Assembly (NCBI GenBank): GCA_016929855.1
Contig: JAFGHY010000092.1
Coordinates: forward strand, 1-46,888
DNA length: 46,888 nt
Direction: 5' to 3'
Origin: Candidatus Woesearchaeota archaeon
GTDB taxonomy: Archaea > Nanobdellota > Nanobdellia > Woesearchaeales > JAHJEM01
The notes under the pieces were generated by a model. That model ran no database searches. It saw nothing but the letters and a program-made list of their open reading frames with translations, and was not told where the DNA came from. Below are positions 3,441 through 5,261 of the stretch, piece after piece. The position numbers were made by a program, and so were the translations under genes. Position 1 is the first letter of the stretch, and the number at the start of each line of letters is the position of its first letter.

Positions 3441-4994
3441 ATGGATGAACTTGCACCAACAGAACCGACTATCCTATCATCTCAAGATACAATAACTCAA
3501 ACAATCTCTGAACATAAAGGACAAGTGAAAGAAAATATTGAATTCGCAATTTACACACTTATAGCCTTCTTGCTTATTGGCTTGATTGTATGTGCATATA
3601 CCTTAGTTAAGATACCCTCAACCGGCGGTACTTCCGCCAGTAGCTTAATTAAAGGAACAATCGTACTAGTGATATTATTGTTGCCCACTATAATTCTTAT
3701 GACAATAGCTGCTTTCTTCGGACATTCTGCCAGCATAAAGTACAACAAAACTTACTTCATCATACTAATACCATTTATATCTGCAGCGGTATCACTGACT
3801 GTAACAATAGCATTTTTTAGGAACTTAGATGGTCTTGCTGGTTTACTAGTGGGAACTATAGTTGCTGGCTTGACAACTTTATTCATATTGCCCACAATCT
3901 TCATTCCGCTAATAATTCATTTACTTTTAAAAAAATTTGGCATAAAGGCAGTGATTGCTAGTATTGCAGTTCTTACGCTGCTACTCTTAGTTGTTATTCT
4001 CACCGGAATTCATGGATTGAGATCTGAAACTGAATTAAACGACATGGACCTCAAAGCAGGTGAAATGATTTCAAATGCTGATAGTGAAAAACAAGAGTTA
4101 CTTGAACTCTGTGATGATTACGGCAACACTGTAGGGAAAGACCAATGCCTGCTTCAGGTCAAAGAAAAGTTCGGAGCTGAAGTCTCGTGTAACGAACTAC
4201 AATTTAATGATGCACAATCCAAAAGCACATGCATAATAATGGATGCAGAAATCAACTTAGATGAAGGATTATGTGACTCTTTGAAAGGAACCAATATAGC
4301 AATTTGCTATAGTCAGGTGGCTGTTGCAAAGCAATCCCTTGAACCATGCTCCAAATTGTCTGGAGCAGAATTTGAAATCTGCGCTCTACCTGCAATGAAT
4401 CAAATAACAACACCAGACAGCTGTCTGAAATATAAGGAACTTTTTTCAGAGGACGGATATTCAGTCTGTGTACGTAAAAATGCGGCATCAACCAACGACG
4501 CAGTAGCATGCACTACCCTTGAAGATTTGGAACAAGCTCTAGCATGCATAAGAAACGTTGCAGCACAAACTAATGATCCAAAAATTTGCGCTCAAATTCC
4601 AATCCTATTCGGTGAAGCATTAATGCAACGAGTGAATGAACGAACCCCCCCTGGAAGGTACGACTTTGAAATAAACGACCAGTATATAACCTGTTTACGG
4701 AGCGCAGGATTTAACATTGACTTCAACACACAACTTAGCTTCAGTCTTACTCCTTGTGTAAGGTTAGAAGGCAAGTCCTGCTCTGAGATTTGTGCAGAGA
4801 AAGGAAAATTATGCGGTAGAGGATGCCCTTATCAAGTTCTTGATATACCTGAACAAGATTACCAAGTCATAAGCTTCCATTCAGATGATTGCTCAGATGA
4901 ACCAGGATTCTCCGGATGTGACATTCAAAATAGCGAGTCAACCTCAGGAATTCGTGCTGCATTTTGCTGCTGTTCAGAACTTCCCACTAACTAG
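3441..4994 (+). CDS. multi-pass membrane protein with a large Cys-rich extracytoplasmic C-terminal domain
   Basis: About five hydrophobic helices fall in residues 35-190. They are followed by roughly 320 aa containing 24 Cys, 13 of them spaced 10-14 residues apart. I recognise no known family. Confidence 0.7.
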   Translation: MDELAPTEPTILSSQDTITQTISEHKGQVKENIEFAIYTLIAFLLIGLIVCAYTLVKIPSTGGTSASSLIKGTIVLVILLLPTIILMTIAAFFGHSASIKYNKTYFIILIPFISAAVSLTVTIAFFRNLDGLAGLLVGTIVAGLTTLFILPTIFIPLIIHLLLKKFGIKAVIASIAVLTLLLLVVILTGIHGLRSETELNDMDLKAGEMISNADSEKQELLELCDDYGNTVGKDQCLLQVKEKFGAEVSCNELQFNDAQSKSTCIIMDAEINLDEGLCDSLKGTNIAICYSQVAVAKQSLEPCSKLSGAEFEICALPAMNQITTPDSCLKYKELFSEDGYSVCVRKNAASTNDAVACTTLEDLEQALACIRNVAAQTNDPKICAQIPILFGEALMQRVNERTPPGRYDFEINDQYITCLRSAGFNIDFNTQLSFSLTPCVRLEGKSCSEICAEKGKLCGRGCPYQVLDIPEQDYQVISFHSDDCSDEPGFSGCDIQNSESTSGIRAAFCCCSELPTN

Positions 4995-5002
4995 GAAAAT
5001 AA

Positions 5003-5222
5003 TGCGGAGGACCGGATTTGAACCGGCGAACCCACTAAGGGAACAGATTCCTCAGGACCCAATTAAGGGCCTGCAAGGCATAACCCGCAGCTGCCTGTTG
5101 AAGCAACCACTCATAAGGCAAGCCTTGTTTAGAGGGAATGGCAAACAGCATCAAGTCATTGCCGAAGCTCATCACTCAAGGTCTCTTGAGTCTGTCGCGT
5201 TTGACCACTTCGCTACCTCCGC
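5003..5222 (-). tRNA. tRNA-Leu(CAA) with a 136-nt intron at position 37/38
   Basis: The reverse complement reads GCGGAGG-TA-GCGAAGTGGTCAAACGC-G-ACAGA-CTCAAG [136 nt] A-TCTGT-TCCCTTAGTGGGTTC-GCCGG-TTCAAAT-CCGGT-CCTCCGC-A. It has a 7-bp acceptor stem, a 5-bp anticodon stem, a 5-bp T stem with a TTCAAAT loop, and a long variable arm (type II). The anticodon CAA corresponds to ttg at 5186-5188. CCA is not encoded. Confidence 0.9.
5049..5184 (-). other. tRNA-Leu intron (136 nt) with bulge-helix-bulge junctions and C-box/D-box-like motifs
   Basis: Anticodon-loop nucleotides C32-A35 (CTCA) pair with TGAG at intron nt 131-134, flanked by two 3-nt bulges (AG|A and GA|A). GTGATGA occupies intron nt 10-16 (plus 5169-5175). 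CTGA occupies intron nt 130-133 (plus 5052-5055). Confidence 0.7.
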
Positions 5223-5250
5223 AAAGGATATTGTTTGGAATTGATATCAG

Positions 5251-5261
5251 GTTTATATTAG
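5251..5261 (-). promoter_or_regulatory. TATA-like box upstream of tRNA-Leu
   Basis: The plus strand reads gtttatattag, i.e. CTAATATAAAC on the minus strand. Its centre is about 34 nt upstream of tRNA position 1. Confidence 0.4.

Follow-up and report, generated by a model that had tools for sequence, protein, structure and literature searches.

A candidate self-targeting box C/D-type guide with a single kink-turn in the intron of a woesearchaeal tRNA-Leu(CAA) gene

The DNA analysed here, hereafter the window, is the whole of a 46,888-nucleotide contig (JAFGHY010000092.1, our contig C31) of an archaeal metagenome-assembled genome of 0.91 Mb, which is ~80% complete and is placed in the DPANN order Woesearchaeales. 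On its minus strand lies a tRNA-Leu(CAA) gene that is interrupted by an intron of 136 nucleotides (nt), and it is this intron that concerns us. A preliminary description, made from the letters of the contig alone, had proposed that the intron hosts a box C/D guide RNA with a C box near its 5' end and a D box near its 3' end. Its gene, strand, intron boundaries (5184-5049) and quoted letters are all correct, including GUGAUGA at intron nt 10-16 (5175-5169) and a single CUGA at nt 130-133 (5055-5052). Our comparison with orthologous introns points to a box C/D-like element that would be aimed at its own tRNA, as had been proposed, and not to a 5' C box and a 3' D box 113 nt apart. The features of the locus are listed below in window coordinates; intron nt x corresponds to window coordinate 5185-x.

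5003-5222, minus strand: tRNA-Leu(CAA) gene with intron (Rfam RF00005, 40.8 bits; ARAGORN run with its intron option, -i, agrees)
5222-5185, minus strand: 5' exon of tRNA-Leu(CAA)
5048-5003, minus strand: 3' exon of tRNA-Leu(CAA); CCA is not encoded
5049-5184, minus strand: intron of 136 nt at the canonical 37/38 position
5185-5191, minus strand: predicted target, tRNA nt 31-37 (ACUCAAG) including the wobble base C34; seven Watson-Crick pairs with intron nt 5-11
5181-5184, minus strand: AGAC, intron nt 1-4, loop of the target/antisense hairpin; the leaders of orthologs measure 2-5 nt in 67 of 78 and are not conserved in sequence
5174-5180, minus strand: antisense CUUGAGU, intron nt 5-11, whose G8, fifth nt upstream of the box, is the partner of C34
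5169-5172, minus strand: D'-type box AUGA, intron nt 13-16, the non-bulged strand of the predicted kink-turn; it is the 3' part of the 'C box' of the preliminary description (5169-5175)
5161-5168, minus strand: GC-UUCG-GC, intron nt 17-24, a mini-hairpin (H2) that serves as C stem in the predicted kink-turn
5153-5160, minus strand: C'-type box AAU-GA-CUU, intron nt 25-32, with a 3-nt bulge (RAU), the GA of the sheared pairs and then positions 3b-5b
5056-5152, minus strand: intron tail, nt 33-129, lineage-specific and not alignable to orthologs
5051-5055, minus strand: C-UGAG; its UGAG (nt 131-134) pairs with C32-A35 as the 4-bp central helix of the splice motif, and the 'D box' CUGA of the preliminary description (5052-5055) overlaps it

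The intron has the parts of an archaeal bulge-helix-bulge (BHB) splice motif, with an anticodon stem, a 4-bp central helix and two 3-nt bulges that hold the splice sites. A check of the pairs found the central helix, C32-A35 with UGAG, perfect in the window. The outer helix, GACC/GGUC, contains one extra unpaired C by inspection, so that the motif is slightly relaxed. In the orthologs described below, the central helix has 4 bp in 62 of 102 introns and 3 bp in 37 of 102.

A BLAST search with the gene against 60 relatives showed conservation in other families of the order for the initial ~30 nt of the intron and for nothing beyond. A strict pattern, GACTCAAG N2-7 TTGAGTGATGAG, scanned over 185,579 species with one genome each, gave 60 matches, 54 of them in tRNA-Leu(CAA) introns of Woesearchaeota/Nanoarchaeota and six in bacteria; we estimate that ~6 matches would arise by chance, which equals the bacterial count. 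To escape the bias towards GUGAUGA, a second collection was assembled with the 5' exon of tRNA-Leu(CAA) alone from 301 genomes of the order. It yielded 123 matches and 122 readable genes, 107 with an intron at position 37/38 and 15 without. A strict parse of the conserved module was passed by 82 of the 107 introns (78 distinct), and several further introns were near misses.

The orthologous introns are mostly 37-66 nt long. In another genome of the same family (G001) the module occupies an intron of ~48 nt, which indicates that the 136 nt of the window result from local expansion. The extra ~100 nt are a lineage-specific addition. They show no similarity to the exons and no internal repeat, and the fold z-score of the tail is -1.5. 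Closer relatives were sought in two metagenome scans, and none was found in them. Within the tail, CAAGG (nt 58-62, 5123-5127) is able to pair with CCUUG (nt 4-8).

In the orthologs, the module consists of a leader of 2-5 nt, a 7-nt antisense (YUUGAGU), box 1 (NNNGA), hairpin H2 and box 2 (N-R-U-G-A-N-N-N). The final GA of box 1 is its only invariant part among the 78 distinct orthologs; the three nt before it vary (GAUGA in 26 of 78, GUUGA in 10, GCUGA in 7, AAUGA in 5, and also GGCGA). Box 2 has an invariant GA as well, preceded by GAU (49), AAU (10), UAU (8) or UGU (5). H2 comprises 2-8 bp of all compositions, with 98.5% of cells paired and with G-C/C-G swaps. In 77 of 85 cases H2 is closed by a pair (-1n/-1b of the kink-turn, or K-turn) that has its G next to box 1 and its C next to box 2. 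Position 4n, two nt before the GA of box 1, covaries with 4b, two nt after the GA of box 2 (AU 41, CG 12, UA 11, GC 7). These two positions are paired in 56 of the 78 introns, against a mean of 31 and a maximum of 44 in shuffles. On the model-derived alignment their covariation score is 0.415, against 0.126 +/- 0.015 in shuffles, with 0 of 500 shuffles reaching the observed score, and slid partners score at most 0.06.

The same anatomy can be traced in the window, where at least one K-turn can be drawn from a D-type and a C-type box, nt 13-16 with nt 25-32 across the hairpin of nt 17-24. Its 3b.3n position is C.U in the window and U.U in most orthologs. A 30-position covariance model of the module, R1, matches window positions 5153-5180 at 29.1 bits. 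Convincing internal C' and D' boxes had not been found in the preliminary description; the intron does have a conserved box of C' type, AAUGA (nt 25-29). As judged from these sequence features, the module is a box C/D-type kink-turn arranged like a C'/D' motif, namely as D-type strand, C stem and C-type strand.

The antisense that precedes this candidate K-turn is directed at the anticodon loop of its own tRNA. It had been pointed out before that CUUGAG (nt 5-10) is complementary to C32-G37, and we find that this complementarity extends to 7 bp with U11-A31. Among the 78 orthologs, all 7 bp of the antisense/target pairing are present in 44 and 6 of the 7 bp in 28. The duplex of the window covers N+2 to N+8, with C34 at N+5. 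When K-turn and antisense were located independently, the distance from the partner of C34 to the GA of the box was exactly 7 nt in 54 of 56 introns. We count the CUUGAGU of the window among antisense elements of the known type, which span 8-12 nt upstream of a D or D' box and place the target opposite the fifth nt, its 7-bp duplex being slightly short. The target/antisense hairpin belongs to the unconstrained minimum free energy (MFE) fold and excludes the BHB. The earlier view of CTTGAG as a pairing that competes with the BHB therefore holds as far as the two are mutually exclusive; rather than a mere nuisance, the pairing would be the guide itself.

R1 was also searched in 31 genomes with a module-free tRNA-Leu(CAA), in 251 genomes sampled from the phylum and in the family's six other genomes. 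All of the strongest matches that were inspected lie in introns of tRNA-Leu(CAA), tRNA-Met(CAU) or tRNA-Trp(CCA), and there was no free-standing (trans) copy among them. All 49 positive genomes of the phylum sample, whose coverage of other orders is uncertain, fall in the same order. The antisense reads UUUGAGC or AAUGAGU in tRNA-Met introns and CUGGAGC or AUGGAGC in tRNA-Trp introns, in each case matching the anticodon loop of its own tRNA in the same register. These introns show further compensatory 4n/4b pairs (GGGGA with ..CC, GCUGA with ..CG). The window's genome itself contains such a second case. Its tRNA-Trp(CCA) gene (contig C90:7896-8056, minus strand) has a ~80-nt intron with the module CUGGAGC-GAUGA-GGCG..CGCC-GAUGA-CUG, in which C34 again lies at the fifth nt upstream of AUGA. 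According to a survey of 2008 (PMC2584109), introns always house the guide for Trp, whereas that for Met is invariably encoded by a gene of its own. The module in tRNA-Met introns of Woesearchaeales runs against its generalisation for Met.

Two observations on the tails of these other introns may be added. Many tRNA-Met introns contain a pseudo-target, AACUCA, in their tail, to which the antisense could bind when the RNA takes its splicing conformation; the module-bearing tRNA-Met(CAU) loci are L216-L221, L225, L227, L248, L249, L252-L255, L263, L265, L266, L268-L273 and L284. The tail of the tRNA-Trp intron on C90 carries UUGGUAU, which is complementary to the 3' splice junction (AU/ACCAG) and has no adjoining box.

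The window's genome encodes the three proteins of a box C/D ribonucleoprotein (RNP) that the preliminary description had named, fibrillarin (213 bits), Nop5 (Nop, 158 bits) and L7Ae (107 bits). Fibrillarin is present in all 26 module-bearing relatives tested. A fibrillarin gene is unrecognisable in four near-complete genomes of the order (G023, G164, G231 and G286). All four of these genomes are also without the module (Fisher p ~0.009 by our own arithmetic, uncorrected for relatedness). Three of them come from one family (f44), and hence the co-occurrence lends weak support. Since a further member of this family, G049, keeps fibrillarin, the pattern points to a loss of the machinery for C/D methylation within one sublineage.

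Our results make it fairly probable that the intron, in its 5' quarter (nt 5-32, window 5180-5153), carries a box C/D-type guide with one kink-turn that targets its own tRNA for 2'-O-methylation of the wobble base (Cm34). As sequence comparison shows, CUUGAGU pairs with tRNA nt 31-37 as a local hairpin adjoining the K-turn, and L7Ae is predicted to bind this K-turn. Nop5-fibrillarin would then be recruited and would 2'-O-methylate C34 of the precursor before splicing. Subsequently the RNA would refold, such that the 3' UGAG pairs with C32-A35 to form the BHB and the splicing endonuclease removes the intron. Many orthologs have a pseudo-target in their tail, such as AACUC, that is able to pair with the antisense in the BHB state and may take it up after refolding. 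More tentatively, at somewhat less than even chance, the module might represent a natural 'half' box C/D RNP of the woesearchaeal C34 tRNAs (Leu-CAA, Met-CAU and Trp-CCA), with one K-turn and one 7-nt guide acting in cis as a hairpin on its own precursor. Its antisense would toggle between the anticodon loop, for methylation, and an intron-internal or BHB state, for splicing, and this would build in the order 'methylate, then splice'.

Several points weigh against a methylation guide of this kind. Natural C/D small RNAs (sRNAs) are bipartite, and in vitro a complex with a single motif is active while its site specificity is lost (PMC1635284). In our introns one K-turn is recognisable, and a second box pair could not be made out in the short orthologs (37-50 nt); a 3' AUGA occurs in 24 of the 102 orthologous introns, for which no partner strand was found. 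The duplex has 7 bp instead of the usual 8-12, AUGA stands as the box in place of CUGA, and the second GA is missing from the C-type box. Rfam has no C/D family that matches at threshold. Searches at the gathering and E<=10 thresholds returned tRNA only, apart from a match to SNORD59 in the intron tail (15.6 bits and E 4.3, the gathering score being 45) that is not significant and is the sole match to a curated C/D covariance model. The device is also dispensable, since 15 of 122 orthologous genes are intronless and ~15 more have introns that lack the module. Finally, part of the comparative evidence leans towards the structure by its making. The alignment behind the covariation score (A2) was fitted to the model and so favours the structure, and the antisense was part of the score in the manual parse of the 78 orthologs.

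Other explanations of the same intron have to be considered. In the preliminary description, the whole intron was a canonical box C/D sRNA, with nt 10-16 as its C box, nt 130-133 as its D box and UUAAUUGGGUC as a D guide for some rRNA or tRNA. Both consensus boxes do stand literally near the intron ends, the BHB brings these ends together as in Haloferax pre-tRNA-Trp, and the C/D protein genes are present. RTGATGA is expected only ~0.016 times in 136 nt by our arithmetic, and the region is conserved in orthologous introns. Yet, the comparative data largely refute this model, which we regard as extremely improbable. The sheared pairs of a true C box are made by its first GA (G3-A4); here this GA is not conserved (GUGGCGA, GUUGUGA, GUGUUGA and GUGGGGA occur in orthologs) and only the last GA is invariant, so that GUGAUGA was misread as a C box. 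Its 'GU' pairs with C32 and A31 as part of the antisense and is replaced by GC in the introns of tRNA-Trp and tRNA-Met, whose nt 31 is G. A further arrangement, in which GUGAUGA serves as the bulged strand of C type and either the anticodon hairpin or the 3' flank supplies the C stem, was rejected by inspection, since G3-A4 is not conserved and a complementary strand is absent. The CUGA at the other end is not conserved as a D box among the 102 distinct orthologous introns either. C is the rarest base before the terminal UGA (A 24, U 12, G 11, C 8), and the four nt that pair with CUCA are UGAG in 54, UAAG in 21, UGGG in 8 and UGUG in 5. Since the base before UGA is unconstrained, the CUGA of the window is explained by BHB pairing plus chance, the by-product that the preliminary description had itself suspected. 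By inspection the intron flanks are not complementary and form no terminal stem, hence no terminal C/D K-turn closed by the RNA ends, and the spacing of 113 nt is absent from the orthologs with their introns of 37-66 nt. The 12 nt upstream of CUGA (CTTAATTGGGTC) gave two 9-bp matches against a shuffle mean of 3.7 when tested against the rRNAs (16S and 23S) of four relatives and against the 23 tRNAs detected in the genome, and thus no guide complementarity above that of shuffles. Rfam small- and large-subunit rRNA (SSU/LSU) searches found no 16S/23S rRNA genes in the assembly of the window's genome.

The module might also be a structural or regulatory device without methylation, in which L7Ae or another K-turn binder holds the precursor in a non-BHB conformer and thereby times or chaperones splicing or protects the anticodon loop. 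The exclusion of the BHB by the MFE hairpin would suit such a role, as would the pseudo-targets in the tails of many orthologs, and L7Ae is reported to bind K-turns in non-methylating RNPs such as RNase P (PMC4245976). We consider this unlikely, because it does not account for the register, in which 54 of 56 introns hold C34 exactly at position five upstream of the box, for the choice of hosts, namely the three C34 tRNAs to which C/D guides are directed elsewhere, or for the co-occurrence of the module with fibrillarin. Alternatively, the anticodon-intron helix might be the recognition element of a protein-only, intron-dependent C34 enzyme, with the K-turn incidental or serving another purpose. 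Eukaryotic pre-tRNA-Leu(CAA) offers a parallel, since in yeast and human Trm4/NSUN2 makes m5C34 only while the intron is still in place (PMC4090602), and the helix covers the same nucleotides. However, the K-turn is conserved as much as the helix and adjoins it in a fixed register, and the same module serves Met and Trp, which renders an enzyme of this type distinctly improbable. A self-targeting guide for C34 remains the reading that we prefer.

The guide in euryarchaeal pre-tRNA-Trp (Haloferax volcanii; Pyrococcus sR50) had been named as the precedent, and it is the right comparison. Like that guide, the module resides in an intron at position 37/38 of a C34 tRNA, C34 lies opposite the fifth nt upstream of an xUGA box (..UGGAGCN-CUGA in Trp, CUUGAGUG-AUGA in the window), guide and splice motif compete for the same nucleotides, and methylation must come before splicing (PMC2584109). 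In contrast, each of the 26 canonical tRNA-Trp intron guides (PMC2584109, Additional file 4) carries a pair of K-turns and a pair of guides in the order stem-C-[U39 guide]-D'-loop-C'-[..UGGAGCN]-D-stem, whereas the order in the window is [C34 guide]-D-type box-hairpin-C-type box-tail. The window has one recognisable K-turn, no terminal stem, no position-39 guide that we could recognise, and Leu(CAA) as host. When compared with these 26 sequences, it shares the C34 guide and its register alone with the sR50-type dual guide (C-D'-C'-D, with guides for 39 and 34).

There are likenesses to three other systems. The elongator tRNA-Met of Nanoarchaeum equitans has a 66-nt intron that contains a C/D-like RNA and accumulates as a stable RNA (Randau, 2012; PMC3491384). 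It shares with the module a DPANN host and box C/D-like elements in the intron of a tRNA other than tRNA-Trp. It differs in that its host is Met and that it is described as a box C and a box D with a GC hairpin, in a description that includes no analysis of a target register. In Haloferax and Pyrococcus, C/D guides are known or predicted for position 34 of tRNA-Trp, tRNA-Met, tRNA-Leu(CAA) and tRNA-Leu(UAA) (PMC7994747; PMC7668247; for the first three also PMC2584109). The free-standing sRNAs for C34 of tRNA-Leu(CAA) in these genera have the same predicted target nucleotide and the same protein machinery as the module, but are bipartite genes of their own, whereas the module was found solely inside introns among the strongest model matches in the 280 genomes of the phylum that were searched. 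The module also resembles the C'/D' K-loop/K-turn of archaeal C/D sRNAs, which also has a D'-type strand, a loop and a C'-type strand, tandem sheared G.A pairs, a 3b.3n pair that is mostly U.U and a Watson-Crick pair at 4b-4n, with the guide immediately 5' of the D' strand. Unlike that motif, the loop of the module is a real stem-loop of 2-8 bp, its D' box is mostly AUGA (NNGA overall), and a partner C/D motif was not found. Our literature search, which had incomplete coverage, found no paper that describes a guide in a tRNA-Leu intron. A putative C34 guide with a single, rotated K-turn is best read as a novel variation on the known tRNA-Trp intron guide.

A second antisense was seen in about a third of the orthologs. 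It stands directly before the 3' UGAGGA (GCCCAUUA, UCCGCUA or UCCACUAA in loci L105, L140, L178, L183, L186, L194 and L209, among others) and is complementary to the loop and 3' strand of the variable arm (UAGUGGGU, UAGCGGG, UUAGUGGA), with compensatory changes. The pairing (GCCCAUUA/UAGUGGGU) reaches at least 7 bp in 19 of 60 introns, against a mean of 8 and a maximum of 18 introns in shuffles, and is thus significant as a count; as a mean, it is not significant. We do not call it a D guide, since its register to the 3' AUGA shifts by one nt and it has no partner box. The window is without it, the sole run of at least 7 bp there (UGGGUCC with GGGUUCG) falling elsewhere on the variable arm.

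Further observations concern the gene as a whole. In many tRNA-Leu(CAA) genes of the order, the 37/38 intron is accompanied by another, 20-60 nt long, that lies after GGTTCGAA within the T-loop or close to it (loci L109, L116, L123, L134, L141, L142, L163, L169, L179, L208 and L214). In the window, a TATA-like A/T-rich box (TAATATAAAC, 5251-5261, minus strand) lies ~30-38 nt upstream of the tRNA and a T-run, TTATTTT (4994-5002, minus strand), follows directly after it, which together fit an independent archaeal transcription unit. An open reading frame of 119 amino acids on the plus strand (4885-5244) overlaps the entire tRNA gene and is most likely spurious.

Intron-hosted methylation guides are textbook knowledge for tRNA-Trp only, with one suggested case in the tRNA-Met of Nanoarchaeum. 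If our interpretation is correct, tRNA-Leu(CAA) would be the third host of intronic guides. Programs that seek C and D boxes at the termini of an RNA would mis-assign the boxes of such elements, as happened in the preliminary description, or miss them. One K-turn in rotated box order would offer a natural test of the two-motif requirement for site specificity that was seen in vitro. A half C/D RNP, if it exists, would run counter to the notion that every natural C/D guide is bipartite, and would be a minimal system for the positioning of fibrillarin by a single K-turn, for example with two precursors paired on one Nop5 dimer. Should our interpretation of the intron hold, the guides for all three C34 tRNAs of the Woesearchaeales, a large DPANN order, were found within the introns of their targets and never as separate genes, which would give these introns a selectable function in streamlined genomes.

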